A stretch of 12,415 bases of DNA from a virus (Duplodnaviria > Heunggongvirae > Uroviricota > Caudoviricetes). The translations under genes and the position numbers were made by a program. The notes under the pieces were generated by a model. It saw only the letters and a program-made list of their open reading frames with translations. It did not search any database and was not told the DNA's origin. Where the stretch lies: positions 1 through 12,415 of the IMG/VR virus record IMGVR_UViG_2541047931_000014. One strand, given 5' to 3'. This document shows positions 1-12,415 of the stretch, one piece after another. Within the stretch, counting starts at the first letter, position 1, and each line of letters starts with the position of its first letter.

Positions 1-177
1 GCGGAGGTAATACACCGTAAGAGCTGGAAAAACCGTGCAGAAGTGGAACTGGCCACACTCACGTGGGTGGACTGGTATAACAATCGACGATTGCTGGAAA
101 GGCTGGGCCATACTCCTCCGGCAGAAGCAGAAAAAGCTTATTATGCTTCCATCGGAAACGATGATCTGGCAGCCTGA
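1..177 (+). CDS. IS3-family transposase (OrfB-like), C-terminal fragment; 5' part lies outside the window
   Basis: Frame 1 reads ...LTWVDWYNNRRLLERLGHTPPAEAEKAYYASIGNDDLAA* with stop TGA at 175-177. The W-Y-N-x-R-R-L-x-x-x-L-G-x-x-P-P-x-E pattern is the conserved C-terminal tail of IS3-family DDE transposases (recalled family knowledge). The track ORF 35..370 is a different frame. Confidence 0.6.
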   Translation, partial: AEVIHRKSWKNRAEVELATLTWVDWYNNRRLLERLGHTPPAEAEKAYYASIGNDDLAA

Positions 178-280
178 GTTCACAGATAAAACACTCTCCA
201 GGAAACCCGGGGCGGTTCAATCCGTACGGGGACGGGATACCGTTTTAATTCACAACAGCGAACAGAGTAATTACAGGGGA
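1..280 (+). mobile_element. Right end of an IS3-family insertion sequence (partial); exact terminal inverted repeat not identified
   Basis: The transposase ORF ends at 177 and the next gene's RBS and start are at about 275-287, so the IS terminus must lie in about 180-280. I cannot place the inverted repeat without its left-end partner. Confidence 0.4.
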
Positions 281-284
281 AGGC

Positions 285-782
285 ATGACAAAGCTGACCA
301 TAAACAGAAAACCGAAGGGCATTTACGGCACGCCGCAGAAAACAGCACAGGCGGCGCAGCAGCAGAATAAAACCACATCGGCGCATAAAGTGATGCCAGA
401 TAACCAGAACACACAGCAGAAGCTCACAGGAGCAACACCGCGGCGGCGTATGACCAAACAGCAGCGTAAAAACCGCAGACGCGTTAACCGTCTTATTGAG
501 CTATGGCCTGAATTATTCAGCCAGGAATCACCTAAGCCGCTTAAGGTGGGGATATTTGACGACCTGATACAGGATATTGCCGCGAGAGGTATTTCACTCG
601 GACAGGGAACACTACGCGCAACGCTGGCGCGTTATGTGCAGACTCCGCGCTATTACCGCGCCCTGGTAGCTGGTGGCGCGCGTTACGACCTGAAAGGCCA
701 GCCGTGCGGCGAGGTAACACCACTACAACAGACGCACGCAGGAAAACTACTGGAGGAGATGAATGGAAATAGTAAGAAATGA
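285..782 (+). CDS. ProQ/FinO-family RNA-binding protein (FinO-like RNA chaperone) with a basic, Gln-rich N-terminal extension
   Basis: ATG at 285 preceded by AGGGGAAGG. The C-terminal half reads [14 protein letters not shown]...[37 protein letters not shown], matching the ProQ/FinO domain signature as I recall it from E. coli ProQ (PLKIGIF.DL ... Y ... G..R.DL.G.PCGE). The N-terminal ~75 aa are K/R/Q-rich and low complexity. Confidence 0.75.
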
Positions 783-1179
783 TCACGCACATGGTCGCCG
801 TGCAGGTGATCACATTGTGGATGAAATTGCGGAAAAACAAAGAGTTGACATTGTTGTCAGTGTCACAGTCGAGAGCGCGAAGCGCCAAAATAAGCGTATA
901 AATGATCATTCAGATGTACATGGTGTGATCACTCGTTTACGCCAGACTTTTGTAACTCGTGAAGAGATGATTGAAGCTATTGACCAGCATACAGCATGTA
1001 TCAGCGTCAGGGATATACCGGAGATCATTGCTAACTACTTCATGATCACCAGACGCCTTTACCGGAGAAAAGACAAGAGCACGGTTAACCGTCTCCTGAT
1101 GTCTGATATTCGCGAATACCTGCAAGAAAGGGGCTATGTGAATCCACCAGAACAGCACTACGGAAGAGTCGGAGGCTAA
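763..1179 (+). CDS. Hypothetical protein, 138 aa, translationally coupled to the upstream FinO-like gene
   Basis: ATG at 763 preceded by GGAGGAG (752-758); overlaps the 3' end of the FinO-like gene by 20 nt. No recognisable motif. Confidence 0.5.
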
Positions 1180-1419
1180 CTAAAACCCTGTACCGAAGAG
1201 CGGCGGCGCGATGGGGTGAAGTAATGCAGTTGGGGAACTGACAAGGAACGGTATTACATATCAATGCGACGACTGGAATGTTCCAGGAAGGCACAGAGGC
1301 CACCGAAGCAACCGGATAATTTAGAAGACCTGAAACGGTCGCTTAAACGCACTGAAAAAGAAATGGGGATAGATGGGATCGGGAAATCAGTATGGCGTAA
1401 CTACCAGAAGTAAGCACAG

Positions 1420-1445
1420 AGCCGGAGCAATCCGGCTTTTTTTTG
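1420..1445 (+). terminator. Rho-independent terminator
   Basis: AGCCGGA-GCAA-TCCGGCT hairpin (1420-1437) followed by an 8-T run (1438-1445). Confidence 0.65.
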
Positions 1446-1544
1446 GCTGAAATCAATCAATCTGTTTTTGTGATAGAAATATGTTTATCTACCACTTTTT
1501 CAGATCAATAATGTGCATAGTTTAGTCAGTAAGAGGAAATTGCT

Positions 1545-1751
1545 GTGAATTGTATTAACGACCTGAACACAGGCGATGTCAGAGGTGGTTCCGTTCATCT
1601 GGATGCACAGACCGTGATGCGCCTTAAGCAGTACAGAATCGACCATGTGAACAATCACCCTGATCAGCCATTACCAGGCGTGGCGCAGATTGTCAGACAT
1701 GCCGTAAACGCCTGGCTTAATCAGAATGGTTTTGCATCGGGGGGTGAGTAA
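1545..1751 (+). CDS. Small hypothetical protein (68 aa); possible small DNA-binding regulator (speculative)
   Basis: GTG start at 1545 with AAGAGGAAA about 8 nt upstream, lying 100 nt after the terminator in an AT-rich promoter-like stretch. The segment GSVHLDAQTVMRLKQYRID ... VAQIVRHAVNAWL loosely resembles a strand-helix-helix layout, but this is not a confident call. Confidence 0.4.
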   Translation: MNCINDLNTGDVRGGSVHLDAQTVMRLKQYRIDHVNNHPDQPLPGVAQIVRHAVNAWLNQNGFASGGE

Positions 1752-1847
1752 TGAATCGCTGGTACAGCATCAAAGCAGAGGGACGCCAATGTTATCTAAC
1801 TCAGGTTTTATGAATTCTGACTCCCGATTCAAAATAGGAGGTTACTA

Positions 1848-4379
1848 ATGCCAGTCGTACCAACAGTATCCGGACGTCAGGTTGAGAGCCGTGGAGTTCA
1901 GTCAGCAGGCTTACAGACGTTTTCTCAGCCAGGTATTAGTGATGCTTTTGTTCGTGCAGGAGCAGAAGCAATTGATATTCTGGGTCAGGCAAAACAGCGT
2001 GCCAATATTGCCTTGGTTCAGGAGGCATCCCTTAAACTCAGTCAGACAGGCAGTGATCTGCTGAATAATCCTGAAACAGGATTGCTTAACCTGAAAGGGA
2101 AAAATGCTATTGGAAAAGGCCATGAGTATACACAGCAGTTTGATGCTCAGATCGAACAACTGGCTATGTCGCTGCCGGATGAACAGGCTCGTAATGCTTT
2201 CATGCAGCAGGCGCAGCAGCAGCGTATTCAGTTCGCTACGCAGGCCGGGAGGTACGAGATAGGGCAAATAAATGCCTACGAAGAAGGCCAGTTTCAGGCT
2301 ACGCTGCTGAACAATGGTAAAAATGCCGCAGCATTGTATGGCGACAACGCAGCATACATATTGGCTAATACGCAAACTTTCCAGCAAATTGAGGAGTACG
2401 GCATTGCGCATGGCTGGAGCGACGAGCAGATTCGGGCCAGGAAAATCGAGTTTAAAGAAGCAACAGCAAAAGCAACTGCTCAAAATGCTATTGGAGCAAA
2501 CTATCTTCAGGTAAGACAGCAAAACGGCGAGTTAAGCGATACTGCTGCTGGAGCTCGCCGTGCTGTAGCAGATAGTGGATCTTCCGATCGTATCCGCGGT
2601 ATACGCAACAATAACCCCGGCAATCTTGAATACAGCAAAACTAATCCGTGGGTTGGGCAGACTGGTGATGATGGTCGCTTTGCCAAATTCGAAACCCCTG
2701 AACACGGTATTCGTGCATTAGGGCGGAACCTGATGTCGTATCAGCGGCAGGGTATTGATACCGTCAGTGAGATAATTAATCGCTGGGCACCGCCCACTGA
2801 TAAAAATGACACAATGTCGTATATCAAAGCAGTGTGCGAACAACTTGGCGTTTCTGCTGATGAGCCTCTCGATGCATCTAATCCGGATACCCTGAAGGCG
2901 CTTTGTGCAGCCATTATCCATCATGAAAACGGTAGCCAGCCATACAGTGATCAGCAGTTAACTGCTGGTGTTAGTGCCGCGCTGGGGCTTTCTCAGCTAC
3001 CGACAAAAAATAAACGTTATACCGGTGTAGCCTGGTTCGATGCTTTAAGTGAATCAGATCAGGCCAGCGTGTTGCGACAGACTGATGCACTAGCCAGACA
3101 ACAGCAGGCTGAATATAAAACGATGCTCGACAGCCGGGTTCGCGATGCGACGGCTGCGTATATGCGTGGCGTTGAATTTCCTAACCCACCTGGTGAGGAT
3201 GATTTTATTGCAGCTTATGGAGTCAGAGAAGGAAACCTGCGATATACCGAGTTTAAGAATACGCAGATCGCCGGACAGTATATAGGCTCTTTCCGCAACA
3301 TGCCGACAAGCAGCATTACAGCATATGTTGAGCAATTACGCCCGGATACTGGTGATACAGGGGAGGGGTATGCGTCTCGTGCGGAGTTATTCGACCGGGT
3401 ATCGGCGGCAGCCACGAAGGTAATAACCCAGAGGCAGAATAATCCGTTTAGTGCAGCGGTGGAAATCGGATCCTATAAGCCGATCACCAGCAACAACCCT
3501 GACGACATCACTGCTGAGGTGGCTAACCGTTTCTCGTCGCAGGAAAGCTTACGCGCGTTGGGAATTAATGCCCCAATCCTCAATAGTGAAGAGGCGGCTG
3601 CGCTGGCACAGCAGGTGCGCGGCACTCAGAACGTTGACCAGACAATTAAACTATTGCAGAGCATGGGGGAAAAGCTACCTGCGCCAGCAATACGGCAGGT
3701 GGCATCTGTAATTGCTCCGAACAGTGCAGCAACAGCCTATTCTGCGCTGCTGCTGGGCACGCCGGATAATCAGTACGATAACACCAGGCCGTCGATCCCA
3801 TATAGTCAGTTCATCGGGTATAAGCCGACGATGAACAAGTACGACGTTGCAAAGGTTATTCTTTCCGGTGACCAACTACTGAATCCGACGAAGGCTATGA
3901 AGAATGCGGGCATAACTCCGGTACAGTTGCCGAGCGAAGATAAAATGAAGCGCGCTTTCGACGAACAGGTTGGTAATGCATTTGCCCGTAACCCAGAGAC
4001 GCGCCAGATCAGTTATAGCCTTTTCAAAGCCGCTTACGCAGGAATCGCTTATCAGTCTGGTAATACGTCTATGACGAGCACAGATGCGGTTAACTCCGAT
4101 GTGGCGGAGAAAGCTGCGCAGTACGCAACAGGCGGTGTATACAAGAGATTTAATGGTGGTGATGTTGTAATGCCTTTCGGCATGGATGAATCCACTTTCA
4201 AAGATCGCTATACCACATCAGCGAAACAAGCACTGAAAGATGCCGGACTTAACGTAAATGCAGTGTCAAACTTCACACCAGTTAATATCGGCAATAACCG
4301 GTATCGGCTGGTAAATGGTAGCGGACGCTGGGCAACAGATCCCAGAACCAATGAAGCTATTGTCGTGAGGGTTGAATAA
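1848..4379 (+). CDS. Large hypothetical protein (843 aa); phage ejection/internal-virion-like, with a conserved-looking NNPGN region that may be a cell-wall-hydrolase-like domain
   Basis: ATG at 1848 with AGGAGG at 1836-1841; 2.5-kb uninterrupted frame; Ala/Gln/Gly-rich. RIRGIRNNNPGNLEY...GRFAKFETPEHGIRALGRNL...INRWAPP lies at about nt 2590-2950. No Walker A or helicase motifs. Confidence 0.85.
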   Translation: MPVVPTVSGRQVESRGVQSAGLQTFSQPGISDAFVRAGAEAIDILGQAKQRANIALVQEASLKLSQTGSDLLNNPETGLLNLKGKNAIGKGHEYTQQFDAQIEQLAMSLPDEQARNAFMQQAQQQRIQFATQAGRYEIGQINAYEEGQFQATLLNNGKNAAALYGDNAAYILANTQTFQQIEEYGIAHGWSDEQIRARKIEFKEATAKATAQNAIGANYLQVRQQNGELSDTAAGARRAVADSGSSDRIRGIRNNNPGNLEYSKTNPWVGQTGDDGRFAKFETPEHGIRALGRNLMSYQRQGIDTVSEIINRWAPPTDKNDTMSYIKAVCEQLGVSADEPLDASNPDTLKALCAAIIHHENGSQPYSDQQLTAGVSAALGLSQLPTKNKRYTGVAWFDALSESDQASVLRQTDALARQQQAEYKTMLDSRVRDATAAYMRGVEFPNPPGEDDFIAAYGVREGNLRYTEFKNTQIAGQYIGSFRNMPTSSITAYVEQLRPDTGDTGEGYASRAELFDRVSAAATKVITQRQNNPFSAAVEIGSYKPITSNNPDDITAEVANRFSSQESLRALGINAPILNSEEAAALAQQVRGTQNVDQTIKLLQSMGEKLPAPAIRQVASVIAPNSAATAYSALLLGTPDNQYDNTRPSIPYSQFIGYKPTMNKYDVAKVILSGDQLLNPTKAMKNAGITPVQLPSEDKMKRAFDEQVGNAFARNPETRQISYSLFKAAYAGIAYQSGNTSMTSTDAVNSDVAEKAAQYATGGVYKRFNGGDVVMPFGMDESTFKDRYTTSAKQALKDAGLNVNAVSNFTPVNIGNNRYRLVNGSGRWATDPRTNEAIVVRVE

Positions 4380-6439
4380 TGTCTGATGTTTTTTCTTTGG
4401 CTCCAGAAGGTCAGGCATGGATTGACGACAAAACAGTTGCCAACCCAGCAAGGCCAGAAGACTACGATCCGACTCCCTTCCAGGGTTCAGGTACTGCACT
4501 TTTTAGCGGCGTGGCGGAGGGGGCTCTCGGTCTCGCGCAGTCTGCCGTCGGATTCAGCAAGCGCCTGATTAGCGATCCGGCATTTACCGCAGACGTGGCA
4601 CCGACTGTTAACATTTTTCGGGAGATGTTCCCTGATGCTGACAAAACACTGAATGATACATACGACACGATCGGAAAACAGTTACAGGATGCCCGCAGCT
4701 ATGTGAAGCCTGATGCAGGCAGCCAGGGAATGGCGGCAGAGGTATTAAATGAGCTTGGTAAATTTGTTCCTGCAATCGGAACAACTATGTTTGGCGGTCC
4801 CCTCATCGGCGCTGCTACAACCTTCAGTTCTACGTATGAGCAATCCTATCAGGATTTTAAAGGGAAGGGAGTAGACGAGGCTACGGCGCGTAACCTGGCA
4901 ACGCAGCAGAGCCTTTTCAATGCTGTGGGTATGGCCTTACCCGCTGCCGTCGGCACCACACTGGCAACGCGCATTGCCTCAGGTGTGGCAATCAACACCG
5001 GATTCGGTGGACTGAACCGTTACTCAGTAGGCGCAACACTGGAGGAAAAAGGCTACACGGAGATGGCAAAACAGTACCGGGTATTTGACGGTCAGGCGAT
5101 GTTAGTCGATGCCGTTTTAGGCGGGGTCTTTGGTGGCGTTCATCACCTGACTACCCATAATAACCATGATGGTACAGAGTCGAACATTTCTGCAGAAGAA
5201 ATAAAATCAACTTTTGGTGAACATTATCAGCAATCTCCTGATGGTAACATTGAGTCAATGGTTCGTGATTTATCTGATTCAGGAGTAATAGAACTTATTA
5301 ATGAACCAGCAATAAAAAATAGTGATGGAGAAATACTTCTGAATAAAGGTCATGTGACAGTAGCTTCTGGAAAAGAACCAATAATAAGAATAAATATTAA
5401 TGGATTAAAAGACCATGAAGAACTGTTAGAAACCCTTCATCACGAGGCGCTTCATCTTGAGCAGCGCCATTACCCTGACTGGAAGGCCAGAAAGCTAGCT
5501 AATGCTGTACTTAAATCTGCAAACAAGCATTCTGACTATCCTGAATTTGCATATGGGATGTCACAATATTATGAATATAAGAAAAGGGGTGAGTACCCTG
5601 AAACATATCCTGAGTGGTTGTACGCTGAAGAAGTTGCCGCACATGCAGTAAATCCATCTCTAAAGACAAGCGTTTCATCATGGGAAAAAATTATTTCAGG
5701 TTTTAAAGCCTATATATTCAGATACAGTGGTATTCAGGTTGGAACCGTTACACCTGAGCAGTTACGGTTACTCGTAAGTATGCGTCTTCGCAATATGAAA
5801 CTGGAAGCCGCAGTAGAAAAAGTTTTTGGTATCCGGGCGAGGGAAAGAATAAAACCAAGCGATATTGATGCAGCCCACATTTTGAATGAGGGGCTTCATT
5901 ACGATATTGAATCGTCACCAGTGCTTCACACCAGCAATGAGAGCATCAACAGCCATGTTGACGCCATGGATGAAGCATACAGGCAACTTAATGATGGTCA
6001 GCCTGTAAATGTTGGGGGGATGGCGCGAGGGCTTGATGGTCCATTGCGATCAGATATATCTGATACTTACCAAGAGCAATACCATGAAATACAAAAGGTT
6101 TTTGAAGAAAATGGTGTCAGATATGAAACATCATCAGAGCCAATTAGTGAATCGCCTGTCCCTCGTGCTGAAAGTGCTTTCTCATCGGCTGGTGAACACA
6201 GAGGGGACGTCAGCGTTGATCCAGATACAGGGCAGGTTCTCTCATCCAACAGCTATGACCTTATGGCTGCCAGGGACATGGCTGTTGCCAATCCTGAGCT
6301 GACTATAGCTCACCCGGAAACCGGAAACCCGACAAAACTTTCTGATCTCCTGGCTGAGTTGGATGAACAGATTAAGACAGTCCAGAACGAATCGAAGGTT
6401 TATTCTGTAGCGGCAGCGTGCTTCTTGAGGAACCCATAA
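4379..6439 (+). CDS. Large hypothetical protein (686 aa); Gly-rich hydrophobic N-terminal half and a low-GC C-terminal segment containing an HEXXH (HEALH) motif
   Basis: ATG at 4379 overlaps the upstream stop (TAATG, 4377-4381). Gly/Ala-rich hydrophobic stretches (GTTMFGGPLIGAATTF, MALPAAVGTTLATRIASGVAINTGFGG, VDAVLGGVFGGV). HEALH is encoded at 5441-5455 within a segment of about 35% GC (about 5160-5760) versus roughly 45-57% in the flanking coding sequence. Confidence 0.85.
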   Translation: MSDVFSLAPEGQAWIDDKTVANPARPEDYDPTPFQGSGTALFSGVAEGALGLAQSAVGFSKRLISDPAFTADVAPTVNIFREMFPDADKTLNDTYDTIGKQLQDARSYVKPDAGSQGMAAEVLNELGKFVPAIGTTMFGGPLIGAATTFSSTYEQSYQDFKGKGVDEATARNLATQQSLFNAVGMALPAAVGTTLATRIASGVAINTGFGGLNRYSVGATLEEKGYTEMAKQYRVFDGQAMLVDAVLGGVFGGVHHLTTHNNHDGTESNISAEEIKSTFGEHYQQSPDGNIESMVRDLSDSGVIELINEPAIKNSDGEILLNKGHVTVASGKEPIIRININGLKDHEELLETLHHEALHLEQRHYPDWKARKLANAVLKSANKHSDYPEFAYGMSQYYEYKKRGEYPETYPEWLYAEEVAAHAVNPSLKTSVSSWEKIISGFKAYIFRYSGIQVGTVTPEQLRLLVSMRLRNMKLEAAVEKVFGIRARERIKPSDIDAAHILNEGLHYDIESSPVLHTSNESINSHVDAMDEAYRQLNDGQPVNVGGMARGLDGPLRSDISDTYQEQYHEIQKVFEENGVRYETSSEPISESPVPRAESAFSSAGEHRGDVSVDPDTGQVLSSNSYDLMAARDMAVANPELTIAHPETGNPTKLSDLLAELDEQIKTVQNESKVYSVAAACFLRNP

Positions 6440-9195
6440 TGAAACAGGCATGTGTTGAAGCTATTGCGCAGACACTTGGTCGCCAGCCAAAGGCTGATGA
6501 GCTGAAAAATATTGAAGATCGTATCAAAGAAGCTGTGCAGCATGTGCACAGAAAGAATGCAAAAGAAGGCAAAAGTGGTATTCCTGATGCTCAAACATAC
6601 ATGGATGCAGCAGAACTGGTACGCCAGCGTGTGGTTCATGATGTGTACAAGAAAAGACAGCGTGTTGCCCAGAATGCGATCGCCATCAGTAAAATTACTG
6701 ACACTCTCGATGCTAACATCCCGCCTGATCAGCAGACACCTGTTAATTTGCAGCAGTTTATTTTTGCTGGCCGACGATCGAGAGACAAAGCTGATATCTC
6801 CGTTACTTCTGCTGAAGAGCTTGCAATTGGGGCATATCAGGACTGGTCCCGTCAGCTCAGTGCTGAACTTCTAAAAGCAGGTGATGACGTCCGCAAATTC
6901 TTCGAGCAGAGCAGGGCGCTTGGAGAGCAGCGGTTTCGGAGTGTATTCGACAGGCAGGCGGCAAAGTCTGCACAACTCCAGATCCTGAAAGAAATTTATG
7001 GCGAAGATACCGGGAATCCCCTGGCGAAGAAAATTGCACAGATTTGGAAGGATGTAACAGGGCGTGTTCGTCATGAGATGAACGACAACGGCTTTGACAT
7101 AGGCCTGCGAGAAGACTGGCATACGCCATATGTGGATGATGCTGACCTTATTCGCAATGCCGGGCGCGAAGAATGGCTGGCATCGTTACCAGTGGCAGAG
7201 CAAGCTACAGTACGTCTTTCAGGTCGCCAGCCACCTATTGAGTTTGCCCGCCAGAAATGGGTTGATGACGCTTACAACACGCAGGATCGCAGCAATTACG
7301 TTAATCCTGACGGCAGCATTATGAATGACGTCGAGTACCGTCAGGCACTGGAAGCGATCTTTGAAACGAAGGCCACTGATGGGGCAAACAAAATTGAGCC
7401 CGGTACATTTATGGGAGACGGAGGAATAAAGAGCCGTGGTTCTCAGCACAGGGTGATGGCGTTCAAGGATGCGCAGTCACACTTCGCCTATATGGAGCGA
7501 TACACTCAGCAGCCGCTGGTGGGGGTGATGATGTCGCACCTGCAATCATCATCCAGGGATTTGGGCGTCGTTAAAGCCTTTGGTCCGGACGCCGAAAGAA
7601 ACTTTTCCCTGGTACTGGATCGCATCTATAAGCGCGCAGTAACAGGCGGGAAACGCAAAAAAGAAATGGAGGATGAGGCCAAATTAGTTGCCCGTATGTT
7701 CAACTCAATGGCTGGCCTAAATGGTGTCGCTTCATCGAGTGTGTTCTCTTCAGCAGTTGGTGGTCTGCGTAACCTGATGACCAGCGCCATGCTTGGCACC
7801 AGCGTACTGACAGCAACCAGCGACCAGGCAATTATGCGGGCAAATGCGCAGGCGCTGGGCTTTACCCGTGGTGGAATGCGGCTTTCCGTTAACACTATCA
7901 AAAACCTGTTTAGTGGAGATGCCAAAAAGGCGAATGCTGAACTCGGTCTGCTGGTGGATTCACATGCTGCTGTGGTTTCGAAAATGGGCGGGTTTGACTT
8001 GTCTCGCGGCATAACTGGCTGGTTCGCAGAGAAGACACTGAAGTGGTCCGGGCTGATCGCTATGGACCGCGCAAACAAAGCGTCGTTTGGTCTCCTGATG
8101 TACAAAAACATTGGCGAGCTGACCAGAAAATTTAAGACGCTGGACGATATAAAAGGAACCGATAAAACCATTCTGGCTAACAAGGGATGGAGCAATGAGG
8201 ACTGGGCCATCATGGCAGCGGCAGAACTCAGGCCGATGACTACTGCCGGGCATATGGGGATGACGCCAGACGCGATTTACGCTGTGCCCGATAACGTAAT
8301 CGCCGACATTATGGCAGACCGTATTGCCCGGATTCGTGCCGGGAGTGAAAAGGCACTGGCAGCCCTTGGAGATCTCCCTCCAGAACGCCTGAAACGGATG
8401 AAAGAAGCATTCGACGCAGAGGCTGAGCAGACCATCACGCGCATGATTCGTAATGCACGCGCTGAAGCAGCCCAGAAATTGCTGGGAATTACGCACGGTG
8501 AGATGACCAATGCTGTGACCACCGCTACGGGTATTGATACATATGCCCATGACGATGCTGGCGAGTTAATGAAGAGCTTCATGCTCTTCAAAACAACCCC
8601 ATTTGCTGGATTTCGGCAACTTGTTAACAGAACACGGGATTTGGACACCGTTCCGGCCATTAAATTTCTGGCCTCATATATCGGGGGAACAACTCTTGCT
8701 GGTATGTTTGCGATCCAGATGAACAGTTTGTTAAATGGTAATGATCCGCTGGATATGACAAAACCAACCACATGGGTTCAGGCTTTACTGAAAGGTGGTT
8801 CGTTCGGTATCTACGGTGATTTTATTTTCCAGGACCATACGCAATATGGCTCCAGCATCGGTGCCACTATGGGTGGCCCTGTGTTGAGCTTTGCAGAGCA
8901 GTTAACAAAATTACTGATTACTAACCCACAGAAGGCTCTACAGGGTGAAGAAACATCATTCGGTGCCGATGCACTGAAAACAGCCCGCATGATCACCCCA
9001 TTCGCAAACCTGTGGTATGCGAAAGCGATAACCAATCACCTGATATTGCAACAACTTCAGGAGATGGCAAACCCTGGTTACAATGATCGAGTAAGGGACC
9101 GCGCGCAACGGGAGTTCGACATAACGAGTTGGTGGGAACCGGGTGCTATTGCGCCACGTAGAGCACCGGATTTTGGAAAGGCGGTAGGGGAATGA
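6439..9195 (+). CDS. Large hypothetical protein (918 aa from the ATG at 6439; the track's 6418 start is an upstream in-frame GTG); ejection/internal-virion-like
   Basis: ATG at 6439 overlaps the upstream stop in the same TAATG arrangement (6437-6441), with GAGGAA 7 nt upstream. 2.75-kb frame. No nucleotide-binding motifs seen. Confidence 0.85.
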   Translation: MKQACVEAIAQTLGRQPKADELKNIEDRIKEAVQHVHRKNAKEGKSGIPDAQTYMDAAELVRQRVVHDVYKKRQRVAQNAIAISKITDTLDANIPPDQQTPVNLQQFIFAGRRSRDKADISVTSAEELAIGAYQDWSRQLSAELLKAGDDVRKFFEQSRALGEQRFRSVFDRQAAKSAQLQILKEIYGEDTGNPLAKKIAQIWKDVTGRVRHEMNDNGFDIGLREDWHTPYVDDADLIRNAGREEWLASLPVAEQATVRLSGRQPPIEFARQKWVDDAYNTQDRSNYVNPDGSIMNDVEYRQALEAIFETKATDGANKIEPGTFMGDGGIKSRGSQHRVMAFKDAQSHFAYMERYTQQPLVGVMMSHLQSSSRDLGVVKAFGPDAERNFSLVLDRIYKRAVTGGKRKKEMEDEAKLVARMFNSMAGLNGVASSSVFSSAVGGLRNLMTSAMLGTSVLTATSDQAIMRANAQALGFTRGGMRLSVNTIKNLFSGDAKKANAELGLLVDSHAAVVSKMGGFDLSRGITGWFAEKTLKWSGLIAMDRANKASFGLLMYKNIGELTRKFKTLDDIKGTDKTILANKGWSNEDWAIMAAAELRPMTTAGHMGMTPDAIYAVPDNVIADIMADRIARIRAGSEKALAALGDLPPERLKRMKEAFDAEAEQTITRMIRNARAEAAQKLLGITHGEMTNAVTTATGIDTYAHDDAGELMKSFMLFKTTPFAGFRQLVNRTRDLDTVPAIKFLASYIGGTTLAGMFAIQMNSLLNGNDPLDMTKPTTWVQALLKGGSFGIYGDFIFQDHTQYGSSIGATMGGPVLSFAEQLTKLLITNPQKALQGEETSFGADALKTARMITPFANLWYAKAITNHLILQQLQEMANPGYNDRVRDRAQREFDITSWWEPGAIAPRRAPDFGKAVGE

Positions 9196-9533
9196 AAAAG
9201 TTAAATACACCAACCAAAAGAGTTGGGGGGCTTCTGATTGTCATTGGAATTATATTTATACTTGCATCTATAATAGAAATATCAAGTAATGAGTTTGCTA
9301 TTTCTGATAGTCCATATTATCGATCGCTAAATGCATATGATATTATTTTTATGTATTTAGAGCGAATTACAGATACTTTCATCATGACTCTAACATTTCA
9401 AACATGGAGTAGCCGTTTCAGTATATTAATGTTAGTAGGGTTTTGTTTATTTATTGTTGGTGTTCTTATTTCATATTTTTACGATGCTGGAATTGGCAGG
9501 GTTGTTAAGTGGATAAGAACGGGTAATTGGTGA
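9192..9533 (+). CDS. Small integral membrane protein (113 aa, two predicted transmembrane helices), very low GC; candidate exclusion/immunity-type cargo
   Basis: ATG at 9192 overlaps the upstream stop (ATGA, 9192-9195). Hydrophobic stretches LLIVIGIIFILASII and FSILMLVGFCLFIVGVLISYF. GC is visibly much lower than in the upstream genes. Confidence 0.7.
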   Translation: MKKLNTPTKRVGGLLIVIGIIFILASIIEISSNEFAISDSPYYRSLNAYDIIFMYLERITDTFIMTLTFQTWSSRFSILMLVGFCLFIVGVLISYFYDAGIGRVVKWIRTGNW

Positions 9534-9864
9534 TTATAAGCAAGCTATTGGTTTCATTGTTTATATCGTTGTCGGAACTTTTTCAACTGACAGCAATCAT
9601 AGCCGGGCTTGAATCGTGGTGGGGATTGCACTGGATAATTGCAGCCCCATTGCTTTCATCGTGAGCTATATTCCATTTGTTGGAGCGATTGTTGGTATGG
9701 TTGGCGCTATGGATGTATGGTGTTGGGAGTGGTGGCAGGCTGGCCTTCTATTCTTTGGCGGATCATCTTTGCTATTGTCAGCGGTGGAATGTCATCATTT
9801 TTCGAATGGCTATCATTCAGAAAAAGAGCGTGACATGTCACAGGCCGCTTTCGCGGCCTTGTTT

Positions 9865-10026
9865 TTAACGAATGCCACCACCGCCCGGGCGGGAATCCGC
9901 AGAACGCCCACCGCAGCGGGAGCCGTCAGCGGCAGTATCGCTGTCGTGCTGACAACGACCGGCAAAGGCCTGAGTTGAAGCTACCAGAGACAACAAAACG
10001 AACAGTGCAGCAAATGCTTTTTTCAT
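9865..10026 (-). CDS. Candidate small secreted peptide (53 aa) with an N-terminal Sec-type signal peptide
   Basis: Minus-strand ATG at 10026-10024 encodes MKKAFAALFVLLSLVASTQAFA|GRCQHDSDTAADGSRCGGRSADSRPGGGGIR, with an AxA-type cleavage site. Candidate promoter TTGACG-N16-TATAGA lies just upstream on the minus strand (about 10040-10070). It is antisense to overlapping plus-strand ORFs, so assignment is uncertain. Confidence 0.35.
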   Translation of the reverse strand: MKKAFAALFVLLSLVASTQAFAGRCQHDSDTAADGSRCGGRSADSRPGGGGIR

Positions 10027-10096
10027 TGTGAAATTTCCATCTATAAGCCACCTCGATGTGGCGTCAATGAATGTAGCACTGACTTTTGTTTCGTCC

Positions 10097-10119
10097 ACAA
10101 AAAAGCCCGCGCTGCGGGC
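10097..10119 (-). terminator. Rho-independent terminator acting on the minus strand
   Basis: GC-rich hairpin GCCCGC-GCT-GCGGGC (10105-10119) preceded on the plus strand by an A-run (10097-10104), so the minus strand reads hairpin then TTTTTTGT. Confidence 0.5.
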
Positions 10120-10728
10120 TTACCAAAACTTGTACCACGGGGATTTATCCTTCAATGGACAATCCTTCCATCGTGTGGCCAGCCATTCATATTCTTTGTC
10201 TTTTCTTCAGTACCGGCTTTGCATCTTCTACACCCTGAAAGATGTCGTTTTATGGTGTATCTGATGATTTATTCCCTAACAATAGATATTCGAAAAATTA
10301 ATCAGTTAAAACAATTATTTGGATAATTTCAGGTAAAAACTATCTTAATCTTCTGGTGGATCTCAATGCGCCGTGACGGTATCGGGATTAAGGGCGTGGA
10401 TATTCGCGATATATGCCGCTACACCCCTCAACAGTAATAGATATGCGCTTTTCACTCTCTCCTTTCACTGCTGAGAACGGCAACAACGTGCCACAGGAAC
10501 GCGCTGTAATCGATTCTGACGCACTTAATTGCGTTGGGTAATGGTTTGCCAGCCTGTGGGGGTAACTCTGTTTTATGAGGCTTTGGCTATAGTGCAAAAA
10601 TGCACTTTGTCTTGCCTCTCAATTTGATGAGACTGGAACGACAACAGGACAGACCACCAGCAACAGTTACCGTATTCAGCCGTTCTGTGGCACCAGTGGA
10701 ACTATCCACCCCTGCTTTCAGCAATGTG

Positions 10729-10782
10729 TTTGCGGGTTATTTTGGGGCGTTTGCGGGTTATTTGGGATGTTTTGCGGGTTAT
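10729..10782. repeat. Iteron-like array: three perfect 12-bp direct repeats TTTGCGGGTTAT at 21-bp phasing
   Basis: Copies at 10729-10740, 10750-10761 and 10771-10782, separated by 9-bp spacers. Confidence 0.85.
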
Positions 10783-10857
10783 GCGATGCTTGAATAATGA
10801 ACAGTGCATTTTGCAACATATTGATACTAAAGAACAAAAAATAGTTAGCACGCTAAG

Positions 10858-10884
10858 ATAACCCGGTAACCCGCATAACCCGCA
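10858..10884. repeat. Three tandem inverted copies of the iteron core
   Basis: ATAACCCGG (10858-10866), TAACCCGCA (10867-10875) and ATAACCCGCA (10875-10884) are reverse complements of TGCGGGTTAT. They are separated from the direct array by a 75-bp AT-rich spacer. Confidence 0.75.
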
Positions 10885-11406
10885 CTGTTTTGTATATATA
10901 TACGAAAAATTGCATTCAGGAGGGGGGATCGAAATCCCTACAACCCATTGCTTATGGGACCGCCGCCTCGTCAAATTTTTACACCCGCGAAATAAAAAAT
11001 ACTTCACGCTGGTGGGCATGATGCTGATATGAGAGGCTTCCATAACGCCACCATTCGAAACTATGCAAATCTGCATAGAAAAGGGGATGCCTGATACAAT
11101 ACCCTCGCCCGATAAAATCACACCGATAAACTCATCTGCCACGAGTAGAAAGAGCGAACGAACCCGATACGCAGTAATGCTGGTCGGGTCCAGCTTTTTA
11201 AGGCGGCTGTAGATATCAGGCCATCCGTGATCATCCACCAGCGTAATTGCTGAACGCTTTAAAAAAACGTGTACATAAGGGTGTACATAATCAAAAACCG
11301 CATTAGAAAGAAACCAGCTACAATGCGGCATTGAAGCCAACACTCTACAAACAGATTCAACATCGAATAACTCGTAACGCCAATTCTTACTTTTCCGCCT
11401 TCACAA

Positions 11407-11438
11407 ATGCCGCCACTCAAACAGAGCGGCATTTTTCT
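11407..11438 (+). terminator. Rho-independent terminator with no plus-strand ORF feeding into it (orphan)
   Basis: ATGCCGC - 11-nt loop - GCGGCAT (11407-11431) followed by TTTTTCTT. All three plus-strand frames are closed immediately upstream. Confidence 0.5.
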
Positions 11439-11530
11439 TCCCCGCAACATTCAATTCTGTTTTGCGTGCCTGCTCCAGATTTTGCGATGTTTTTTTGCCC
11501 AGCACACTGAGAACGTGAGATACTCACAAC

Positions 11531-11546
11531 TGTATATAAATACAGT
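11531..11546 (+). promoter_or_regulatory. LexA operator (SOS box) in the dinD promoter
   Basis: CTGTATATAAATACAG matches the CTGT-N8-ACAG consensus and sits 45 nt upstream of the dinD start, overlapping a TATATAAAT -10-like element. Confidence 0.8.
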
Positions 11547-11590
11547 TACAGATTTACTTTCTTTGCAATTGATATCACATGGAGTGGGCA

Positions 11591-12415
11591 ATGAACGAAC
11601 ATCATCAACCTTTTGAAGAGATAAAACTGATTAATGCAAACGGAGCAGAACAATGGTCAGCAAGACAACTTGGGAAACTACTGGGTTATTCAGAGTATCG
11701 TCACTTTATACCTGTATTAACGCGCGCCAAAGAAGCCTGTGAGAACAGTGGTCACACAATTGATGACCATTTCGAGGAGATCCTCGATATGGTCAAAATT
11801 GGCTCAAATGCCAAAAGAGCATTAAAAGACATCGTACTCTCCCGCTATGCCTGTTACCTGGTAGTACAAAACGGCGCCCCTGCGAAACCGGTCATTGCGG
11901 CAGGGCAGACTTATTTTGCTATCCAGACCCGACGGCAGGAGCTTGCTGACGATGAAGCATTTAAGCAACTTCGTGAAGACGAAAAGCGTCTGTTTCTGAG
12001 AAATGAGTTGAAAGAACATAACAAACAATTGGTTGAGGCAGCACAGCAAGCTGGGGTAGCGACAGCTACTGATTTCGCCATATTTCAGAATCATGGTTAC
12101 CAGGGGCTGTATGGTGGATTAGATCAGAAAGCTATTCATCAGCGGAAGGGGCTGAAAAAGAATCAGAAGATCCTGGATCATATGGGTTCAACAGAACTGG
12201 CGGCTAATCTCTTTCGAGCTACCCAAACAGAAGAAAAACTCAAGCGGGATGGCGTGAATTCAAAACAGCAAGCAAACACCACACACTTTGACGTGGGTCG
12301 CAAGGTGAGGCAAACCATTCAGGAACTTGGCGGAACCATGCCTGAGGAGTTGCCGACCCCGCAGGTCAGCATCAAGCAGTTGGAAAACAGTGTAAAAATT
12401 ACAGAGAAGAAATAG
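11591..12415 (+). CDS. dinD: DNA-damage-inducible protein D (DinD), apparently intact at 274 aa
   Basis: ATG at 11591 with GGAGTGGG just upstream (the track's 11579 start is an upstream in-frame alternative). The sequence MNEHHQPFEEIKLINANGAEQWSARQLGKLLGYSEY... matches E. coli DinD as I recall it, and the LexA box directly upstream supports SOS regulation. Stop TAG at 12413-12415. Confidence 0.8.
   Translation: MNEHHQPFEEIKLINANGAEQWSARQLGKLLGYSEYRHFIPVLTRAKEACENSGHTIDDHFEEILDMVKIGSNAKRALKDIVLSRYACYLVVQNGAPAKPVIAAGQTYFAIQTRRQELADDEAFKQLREDEKRLFLRNELKEHNKQLVEAAQQAGVATATDFAIFQNHGYQGLYGGLDQKAIHQRKGLKKNQKILDHMGSTELAANLFRATQTEEKLKRDGVNSKQQANTTHFDVGRKVRQTIQELGGTMPEELPTPQVSIKQLENSVKITEKK

Follow-up and report, generated by a model that had tools for sequence, protein, structure and literature searches.

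The endolysins ORF39 of the Hafnia phage Enc34 (PDB 7Q47) and M4Lys of the Salmonella phage BSPM4 are lysis-cassette proteins of ~26 kDa with a C-terminal two-helix membrane domain. The Enc34 domain lyses E. coli, P. aeruginosa and Hafnia cells whose outer membrane has been permeabilised (PMC8943055). In a superposition with GH73 and GH23 enzymes, three of its residues, Glu131, Trp79 and Tyr95, coincide with catalytic ones, and the catalytic role of the glutamate was deduced from this superposition, without mutagenesis or a bound substrate (PMC8943055). The order of the core helices in the Enc34 type is permuted compared to SLT domains, which moves the catalytic Glu from the first core helix to the last (PMC8943055). 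The bond specificity of the type is unsettled, since an N-acetylglucosaminidase activity was inferred while HPLC data on M4Lys also suggested an endopeptidase. CDD lists the family as PHA02564 and provisionally labels it a domain of virion proteins (PMC7143992).

Members of this domain family also occur in virions. Tailless membrane phages have lysins that carry it (PM2 P5-like proteins, NO16 GP11 and Jorvik Stl), with a proposed role in entry, although these are small, stand-alone proteins of the Vinavirales and not parts of a podophage ejectosome. Among podophages, T7 gp16 sets the example of a wall-cleaving module on an ejected core protein, in its case an N-terminal SLT (GH23) lytic transglycosylase. 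Gp29 (PDB 9VVP; 1295 aa, four chains), a podophage internal or ejection protein, is the closest solved relative of the domain described here.

The analyzed window, a stretch of 12,415 nucleotides, contains an open reading frame of 843 aa (1848..4379, + strand). Orthology identifies its product as the counterpart of epsilon15 gp15 and phiV10 p18, that is, as a predicted internal virion or ejection protein. The AlphaFold model of the full-length protein (pLDDT 80, pTM 0.51) predicts a helical N-terminal region (aa 37–226), a wall-hydrolase domain (aa ~248–382) whose final helix spans aa 368–378, a second helical region (aa 395–760) and a small alpha/beta C-terminal domain (aa 764–841). On sequence and model, aa ~248–382 are predicted to fold into a peptidoglycan glycosidase domain that is all-helical, related to lysozyme and inserted between N- and C-terminal helical regions. 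Rich in Ala and Gln and largely helical, the protein has no hydrophobic segment in a Kyte-Doolittle scan with a 19-residue window (maximum 1.35).

The original prediction had pointed to positions 2590–2950 as a conserved-looking NNPGN region, possibly a virion-associated peptidoglycan-degrading domain. A real domain lies there, with slightly different borders. The start was one base out of frame, as the codon of Arg248 begins at 2589 and translation from 2590 runs into stop codons, and the fold extends ~40 nt beyond the proposed 3′ end, to about aa 382 (nt ~2993), giving a domain at 2589..2993 (+ strand; aa 248–382). The NNNPGN motif was correctly placed at 2607..2624 (+ strand) and corresponds to aa 254–259 in translation and alignments, within the conserved N-terminal loop RGIRNNNPGN. 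The translation of 1848–4379 includes DRIRGIRNNNPGNLEYSKTNPWVGQTGDDGRFAKFETPEHGIRALGRNLMSYQRQGIDTVSEIINRWAPP, matching the peptide quoted with the prediction. The rest of the protein had been described as low-complexity, which does not hold: the Shannon entropy is 3.3–4.1 bits throughout (40-aa windows), with its peaks in the wall-hydrolase domain.

The family, which had been left unnamed, is that of the Enc34-type enzymatically active domain (CDD PHA02564). Residues 249–368 match the catalytic domain of Enc34 ORF39 (7Q47; phmmer E=2.8e-17), and the domain matches residues 4–151 of the 1295-aa Gp29 (9VVP; phmmer E=3e-38), in which the W/Y/E residues are conserved. PHROG families with annotated endolysins or transglycosylases also match the domain, with E=1e-21 to 1e-69. 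Pairwise alignment maps the Enc34 signature Trp79/Tyr95/Glu131 to W313/Y325/E360; in this alignment, chain index 80 equals residue 79 of the published numbering. Together with the muralytic activity of the Enc34 domain (PMC8943055), these matches support the suspected wall-degrading function, and by its sequence aa ~248–382 is a peptidoglycan-cleaving domain of the known Enc34 endolysin type, a predicted enzyme.

Conservation is concentrated on this domain. Glu360 (codon 2925..2927, + strand), in an HHENGS motif and equivalent to the proposed catalytic Glu131, is invariant both in an alignment of 62 diverse homologs and in a full-length alignment. Epsilon15 and phiV10 keep it as well, as do the island variants discussed below. 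Trp313 (codon 2784..2786, + strand), the counterpart of the substrate-positioning aromatic Trp79, and Tyr325 (codon 2820..2822, + strand), the counterpart of Tyr95, show conservation of at least 90% in the 62-sequence alignment and are invariant in the full-length one; their putative roles are taken from Enc34 (PMC8943055). The residues invariant among the 62 homologs also include G251, R253, N256, G258, N259, A314, P315 and G362, while N254, N255 and P257 reach 90% conservation or more. RNNNPGN[I/L/V] occurs in 104 of the 120 homologs listed. In the full-length alignment, where identities go down to 27%, 36 of the 42 invariant columns fall in aa 250–378, so the impression of a conserved region was well founded. 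Identity to epsilon15 gp15 is 98% in aa 251–300 versus 48% in aa 201–250, and dN/dS inside the domain is 0.13 between two island lineages.

Pfam-A gave no match at E≤1 for the gp15-like protein, which is the profile check that had been suggested along with the prediction; taken by itself, this empty result would have led to a wrong dismissal of the wall-hydrolase idea. Pfam-A and NCBIfam together returned no meaningful match for the gp15-like protein, the isolated domain or the gp16-like and gp17-like proteins encoded downstream. Although ~18,900 clusters at 50% identity match the domain, neither Pfam nor NCBIfam holds a curated model, and routine annotation pipelines therefore overlook the Enc34-type domain. 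Among the existing labels, epsilon15 gp15 (AAO06078.1) is a 'putative lytic transglycosylase' and phiV10 p18 is 'similar to structural protein P5 from PM2'; both are orthologs with nearly identical domains. The GenBank label of epsilon15 gp15 rests on an HHpred match to SltB, while its actual family is the Enc34 type.

The gene context indicates what kind of protein carries the domain. Overall, the gp15-like product is 79% identical to epsilon15 gp15. The ten related loci from other genera all belong to complete epsilon15-like prophages that share the order gp11-gp12-gp13-gp14-gp15-gp16-gp17, and RefSeq names the upstream neighbor in intact prophages 'virion core protein, T7 gp14 family'. In these ten prophages, in further prophages of E. 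coli and in the phages epsilon15 and phiV10, the gp15 ortholog lies directly 3′ of the gp14-family gene, in a block between tail and tailspike genes. Foldseek with the full-length model returned T7 gp15 as the top three PDB matches (7k5c_A, 9jyy_G and 6yt5_A) at E=1.6e-3 to 1.5e-2 and a probability of 0.95–0.99, but with low TM values of 0.15–0.24. Epsilon15 gp15 has reportedly been detected in virions by mass spectrometry. The orthology supports the assignment of the gp15-like protein as a probable podophage DNA-ejection protein, an interpretation raised in the original prediction. A review (PMC8954989) lists epsilon15 'gp11/12/13' with sizes at odds with the epsilon15 record, and its table was set aside.

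In the window, the gp14 gene is reduced to its last ~22 codons. This 3′ remnant (1780..1848, + strand) ends in GTPMLSNSGFMNSDSRFKIGGY before the stop codon, has a C-terminus identical to that of the gp14-family protein of prophage L025, and forms the left border of the phage-derived segment, with the gp14 body missing. As read from the sequence, a Shine-Dalgarno AGGAGG (1836..1841, + strand) lies 6 nt 5′ of the gp15 ATG at 1848. Overlapping the gp15 stop is the start of a gp16-like ejection protein of 686 aa (4379..6439, + strand) with an HExxH motif (HEALH), a region with no PDB match and with weak PHROG matches only. It is followed by a gp17-like virion core protein of 918 aa (6439..9195, + strand), 89% identical to epsilon15 gp17, and, at the gp18 position, by a 113-aa protein with two predicted transmembrane helices (9192..9533, + strand). 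The annotated ATG of the gp17-like gene is at 6439, and the open reading frame lister places the start at an upstream GTG, 6418.

Exchange of the domain between alleles speaks for a function equivalent to that of a lytic transglycosylase. The allelic gp15 of an intact E. coli prophage shares aa 1–235 with the gp15-like protein at 67% identity and then has a Pfam SLT domain (PF01464, E=1.6e-17) at aa 233–339, in the same slot as the Enc34-type domain. The sole local similarity between the domains of the two alleles, AIIHHENGSQPY versus AIIWQESGGNQY, is not significant (E=0.54). Uetakevirus gp15 alleles thus exchange the Enc34-type domain for an SLT domain. One could suppose that the domain is a non-catalytic peptidoglycan-binding or structural module that anchors or spaces the ejection channel without cutting the wall, as large ejection proteins hold many structural segments and no substrate was trapped in the Enc34 crystals. 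We regard this as very improbable. The proposed catalytic Glu does not vary in either alignment, conservation of the Trp/Tyr pair is complete or at least 90%, the homologous domain is muralytic on its own (PMC8943055), and a mere spacer is hard to reconcile with its replacement by an SLT catalytic domain.

The alternative of a lysis enzyme, acting as an endolysin from within at the end of infection and not at entry, draws on the best-characterised relatives, Enc34 ORF39 and M4Lys, which are endolysins, and on the 'endolysin' label of several matching PHROG families. The domain is common to these proteins and the gp15-like protein, whereas the endolysin architecture is not. In the gp15-like protein, which is 843 aa long and encoded in a virion core gene block and not in a lysis cassette, the domain lies inside the chain, and the C-terminal two-helix membrane domain of Enc34-type endolysins is absent. 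In addition, phiV10 owns a separate holin/endolysin/spanin cassette, and the closest solved relative, Gp29, is an internal virion protein. A lysis role is accordingly the least credible of the functions considered, with hardly any probability left to it.

The position of the domain differs among ejection proteins. In Gp29 and in Kayfunavirus phages, it is at the extreme N-terminus of the third, gp16-like protein, which in Kayfunavirus occupies the position of T7 gp16 and is annotated 'internal virion protein with endolysin domain', whereas here it starts from aa ~248 of the gp15-like protein. There is no sequence-detectable homology between the T7 gp16 SLT domain and the gp15-like domain (no Pfam SLT match), and the chemistry of the latter may be hydrolytic, unlike that of the T7 lytic transglycosylase.

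We consider it likely that the domain is an Enc34-type glycosidase on an ejection protein, used for local digestion of the wall at DNA ejection. Under this proposal, gp15 would be packaged in the head of Uetakevirus (epsilon15/phiV10-like) virions and would leave through the portal and tail at infection. Once the protein is in the periplasm, Glu360 would serve as general acid while Trp313 and Tyr325 hold the glycan in position. The domain would then cut glycan strands locally, opening a hole in the sacculus through which the ejection proteins would assemble their trans-envelope DNA channel. By analogy, this role would equal that of the T7 gp16 SLT domain, and a glycosidic bond would be cleaved during entry. 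Going by what is reported of the activity of T7 gp16, the activity of the domain may matter only under particular conditions.

The domain itself is ordinary, and the unexpected part is the place of its gene, in a small mobile island of E. coli and not in a phage. Epsilon15 and phiV10 have the same neighbors, gp14 upstream and gp16 and gp17 downstream, but in complete phage genomes. The window is chromosomal DNA of a ~20-kb integrase/AlpA/DUF927 island with att repeats. Family matches of the island genes include Phage_integrase, Phage_AlpA, DUF927 and SSB, and the island also encodes Rha/Ant/Bro regulators and an Icd-like protein. The gp15–gp17 trio are its only structural genes; capsid, portal, terminase, tail and lysis genes are absent. 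The 3′ end of yicC recurs as an imperfect 21-bp repeat at both ends, detected by comparison with K-12, which has the empty site; a search for exact matches was negative. The right boundary is formed by the attR-like repeat CAGATTCAACATCGAATAA (11352..11370, + strand), beyond which lies host DNA with dinD (11579–12415). At the other end of the window is the 3′ end of an IS3-family transposase gene (1..219, + strand), inserted in this copy in the 3′ end of ssb.

Left of the phage-derived segment is a site like that of phage P1 pac (778..935, + strand). It matches the P1 pac region at 84% identity, the cleavage center (here at ~850–870) included, and has TGATCA hexamers at 780, 807, 903 and 926. 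The site falls inside an open reading frame, 763–1179, in which an N-terminal fragment of PacA is fused to an Ant1-like fragment and which has no similarity to phiV10 TerS. As a Uetakevirus packaging site it was rejected, as phiV10 has neither a similar sequence nor a TGATCA cluster. An origin of the whole island as a deleted Uetakevirus prophage was rejected as well. Its left 10.6 kb are unmatched at the nucleotide level in 50,697 phage records, save the P1-like pac fragment and 67 nt just 5′ of gp15, and the replication genes of phiV10 are lambda-type O/P-like and not DUF927. A scan of IMG/VR for the junction found one match, a contig from an isolate genome that is uninformative for packaging. 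PADLOC found no match for the trio and the small neighboring open reading frames, leaving a known defence system unsupported.

What the island does with these genes can be read in two ways. The island gene may be an unused leftover: illegitimate recombination would have brought a Uetakevirus prophage fragment (gp14 3′ end to gp18) into an integrative element of unrelated origin, where the hydrolase domain would have no present role. The truncation of gp14, the missing capsid, portal, terminase, tail and lysis genes, a frameshifted PerC, the IS3 insertion in this copy and the lack of any sigma-70-like promoter found 5′ of the gp15-like gene all fit such a capture. However, island copies from at least two chromosomal sites, which carry two different integrases, have the three large open reading frames (843, 686 and 918 aa) intact; the second site adjoins tRNA-Gly. 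Furthermore, the arrangement occurs in ~38 complete E. coli genomes, the strong Shine-Dalgarno and the overlapping start and stop codons are kept, and dN/dS is 0.05–0.25, low values that could stem from phage alleles acquired via recombination. On balance we judge an unused leftover possible but somewhat unlikely. Genes for capsid, portal, terminase, tail and gp14 are all missing from the island, an IS3 element has inserted nearby, and its gp15 copy may never become part of a particle.

The second reading compares the island with PICI and P4-like satellites. Like these, it has an integrase, an AlpA-family regulator, a DUF927 primase-like replication gene, site-specific insertion with att repeats, a size of ~20 kb and a pac-like site, and it lacks capsid, terminase and tail genes. 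It differs in the P1-type pac-like site beside structural genes derived from a Uetakevirus. Our literature search found no described satellite with podophage ejection-protein genes or a P1 pac site. We tentatively suggest, while thinking it rather doubtful, that the ~20-kb element is an undescribed kind of phage satellite with a PICI-like backbone, possible P1-type pac packaging and its own podophage ejection proteins (gp15 with its wall hydrolase, gp16 and gp17), without capsid-remodelling genes. As a satellite, it might use an ejectosome of its own to deliver island DNA, or the proteins it encodes might spoil helper particles.

For the gp15-like gene of the window, the preferred reading of an entry glycosidase replaces the 'hypothetical protein' of public records (RefSeq) with a more precise annotation, a predicted Enc34-type wall glycosidase on an ejection protein, and it names E360, W313 and Y325 as the residues for mutation. 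The same domain is carried by the gp15-like protein in Uetakevirus and by the gp16-like protein in Kayfunavirus. If the satellite proposal is true, a satellite bringing its own ejection proteins would represent a new satellite strategy.

The conserved region lies in the 843-aa gp15-like protein encoded on the + strand at 1848–4379, and the peptide quoted in the original prediction is present in the translated ORF. The NNNPGN motif is indeed encoded at nt 2607–2624, corresponding to residues 254–259, while the proposed region start of 2590 is out of frame by one base, as the Arg248 codon opens at 2589, and translation from 2590 runs into stop codons. Two alignments and a comparison to epsilon15 gp15 confirmed that this is a conservation island. 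Gly251, Arg253, Asn256, Gly258, Asn259, Ala314, Pro315, Glu360 and Gly362 are among the residues invariant across 62 diverse domain homologs, and Asn254, Asn255, Pro257, Trp313 and Tyr325 are at least 90% conserved in the same alignment. When 37 proteins are aligned over their full length, down to 27% identity, residues 250–378 hold 36 of the 42 invariant columns. Identity to epsilon15 gp15 is 98% at residues 251–300, compared to 48% at residues 201–250. The rest of the protein had been described as low-complexity, a description that does not hold: entropy is 3.3–4.1 bits throughout (40-aa windows) and the AlphaFold model displays ordinary long helices.

Neither Pfam-A (2025 copy), the profile check originally proposed, nor NCBIfam gave a match to the domain. 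PHROGs gave strong matches, to family members annotated as head protein, endolysin, tape-measure protein or tail injection transglycosylase. A PDB sequence search matched two entries, 9VVP and 7Q47. The first match is to residues 4–151 of the 1295-aa Gp29 chain (E=3e-38), in an entry with four chains, and the second is to the catalytic domain of the phage Enc34 endolysin (E=2.8e-17). The Enc34 domain family corresponds to CDD PHA02564, and the domain on its own lyses E. coli, P. aeruginosa and Hafnia cells whose outer membranes have been permeabilised (PMC8943055). Its Glu131, Trp79 and Tyr95 occupy the same spatial positions as the GH73 and GH23 catalytic residues; N-acetylglucosaminidase activity is the authors' inference (PMC8943055). 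The HMMER alignment numbers these residues one higher throughout, as chain positions 132, 80 and 96, and pairs them with Glu360, Trp313 and Tyr325 of the window protein. Family and active-site conservation are established here, and we infer catalysis by the window protein and the bond cleaved. By homology, the domain is thus assigned as a putative Enc34-type wall hydrolase, a known type, on a podophage ejection protein, which supports the earlier interpretation of a wall-hydrolase-like domain in an ejection protein.

An exhaustive profile search with the 62-sequence alignment recovered 18,903 representatives of 50%-identity clusters at E<=1e-3, of which 13,514 pass E<=1e-10. With ~18,900 matching clusters and no Pfam-A or NCBIfam model, this is a very large family absent from general-purpose domain libraries. 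Among the best 150 of the 18,903, the domain stands alone, is N-terminal with short tails, is internal in 700–1270-aa proteins, or is C-terminal. Homologs mostly carry the label 'hypothetical protein'. The domain also occurs in Chi-like siphophage endolysins, Mu-like Pseudomonas phage proteins, some Microviridae and virion proteins of tailless phages, such as NO16 GP11. Peptidoglycan degradation has been reported for Stl of the tailless phage Jorvik, which has the same domain.

The whole gene is 74.5% identical to epsilon15 gp15 at the nucleotide level. Its first 1527 nt are 89–97% identical to E. coli Uetakevirus phages (HEMP4, phiV10, ZX5 and others), while the last 40% is epsilon15-like at only ~75%, and this closer 5′ match within a whole-length epsilon15 match indicates a mosaic allele. 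The epsilon15 record names gp15 a 'putative lytic transglycosylase', based on an HHpred match to SltB, and the phiV10 record lists PM2 structural protein P5 as similar. The related loci in other genera, 10 in number, are all complete epsilon15-like prophages with genes ordered gp5...gp11-gp12-gp13-gp14-gp15-gp16-gp17, and the gene upstream of gp15 has the RefSeq name 'virion core protein, T7 gp14 family'. The full-length AlphaFold model (pLDDT 80, pTM 0.51) predicts a helical region at residues 37–226, the hydrolase domain, a second helical region at 395–760 and a small alpha/beta C-terminal domain; no transmembrane segment was predicted in the protein. The three best Foldseek matches in the PDB are T7 gp15 chains, from 7K5C (periplasmic tunnel), 9JYY (mature core) and 6YT5, with E values of 1.6e-3 to 1.5e-2, probabilities of 0.95–0.99 and a TM of only ~0.2. 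The modeled full-length likeness to T7 gp15 is taken as suggestive.

In L014, an intact E. coli Uetakevirus prophage (NZ_OZ546925.1), the gene in the gp15 position (9012–11633) encodes 873 aa. Its product is 67% identical to the window protein over residues 1–235, with the first 140 nearly identical, and carries a Pfam SLT domain at residues 233–339 (E=1.6e-17), exactly in the slot of the Enc34-type domain. Two modules that cleave the wall have thus been exchanged for one another in nature. Conversely, in T7-like Kayfunavirus, an Enc34-type domain sits N-terminally on the large protein in the T7 gp16 position, the place of the SLT domain in T7, and records label this protein 'internal virion protein with endolysin domain' or 'DNA ejectosome component'. 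Judged from sequence, the interchange points to the domain being functionally equivalent to a transglycosylase. We considered and rejected a role as lysis enzyme, because phiV10 has its own separate holin/endolysin/spanin cassette. The best-supported reading is that the domain would be a wall glycosidase carried by an ejected core protein, which would open the sacculus locally during genome delivery. The same role has been assigned to T7 gp16-N (PMC8954989). Predicted fold, phage gene context and domain interchange are established here; the domain probably acts at entry.

Rather than being a phage genome, the window lies in an island of ~20 kb in the E. coli chromosome. Positions 220–12415 match E. 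coli chromosomes at ~99%. Nt 1–219 belong to an IS3-family transposase gene, of which they form the 3′ end; this sequence occurs at >25,000 places across E. coli genomes and, in this copy of the island, interrupts the ssb 3′ end. The island spans window 220–11370, and the whole element spans 8836–28960 of L002, a complete copy. The copy in strain M21170 measures ~20.1 kb and sits at the yicC 3′ end between imperfect 21-bp repeats (CAGATCCAGAATATCGAATAA / CAGATTCAGAACATTGAATAA); the site is empty in K-12. The right repeat lies at window 11352–11370, with dinD next. In other strains, the same element with a different integrase adjoins a tRNA-Gly gene, and the 843-aa protein is identical in both settings. 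The island-type gene is present in ~38 of 5,426 complete genomes, and some Uetakevirus gp15 5′ region in 609.

The island begins with an integrase and an AlpA-family helix-turn-helix regulator, followed by Rha, AntA and Bro-N regulators, an Icd-like protein, DUF4222, DUF927 (708 aa), SSB, ProQ/FinO and a 138-aa ORF. A frameshifted PerC, a 68-aa ORF, gp15, gp16, gp17 and a small two-transmembrane-helix protein complete it. PADLOC found no defence genes among gp15–gp17 and the small ORFs nearby. Searched against 50,697 phage records, the left 10.6 kb of the island gave no nucleotide match except for a P1-like pac fragment and 67 nt immediately before gp15. An ORF at 763–1179 fuses an N-terminal fragment of P1 PacA (residues 7–68, 62–68% identity) to an Ant1-like fragment. 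Within it, window ~778–935 is 84% identical to the P1 pac region at the DNA level, including the P1 DNA cut centre, and TGATCA hexamers at 780, 807, 903 and 926, the only such cluster in the window, flank this centre. No sequence comparable to this P1-type pac-like site is present in phiV10.

The epsilon15-like gp15–gp17 trio comprises the sole structural genes of the island. The phage-derived segment starts inside gp14 and stops near window 10120. Only the last ~22 codons of the 'T7 gp14 family' core gene remain (1780–1848), just upstream of gp15; this remnant marks an illegitimate recombination junction, and the ejectosome outer-membrane component is therefore missing from the island. At 1418–1439, ahead of the 68-aa ORF and the trio, a terminator-like hairpin is followed by a T-run. 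Window 1100–1900 showed no sigma-70-like promoter, so expression may need an activator. The gp16-like protein (4379–6439) contains an HExxH motif, HEALH, at residues ~354–358 in a central region not common to epsilon15 gp16. This region has weak PHROG matches only (DarB-like antirestriction, E=2e-4; phrog_10499) and no match in a PDB sequence search; it could represent a metallopeptidase-like module or an injected effector. Directly after gp17, with stop/start overlap, a 113-aa ORF (9192–9533) encodes two strongly hydrophobic stretches (residues 6–38 and 71–105) and has no family match.

Every copy examined keeps the three large ORFs intact. Comparing island lineages gave dN/dS values of 0.20 (gp15), 0.13 (the gp15 domain), 0.05 (gp16) and 0.25 (gp17). 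Patches of ~80% identity between lineages at gp15 residues 301–400 and 701–800 suggest that phage alleles have recombined into the gene, and some of the dN/dS signal may accordingly be phage-inherited. The island may be an undescribed satellite-like mobile element with its own ejection proteins; our literature search for satellites with ejection proteins or a P1 pac site found no description of such an element. It may instead be a mobile element that captured a prophage fragment and makes no use of it. The domain itself is of modest interest; the island context is the part deserving follow-up.
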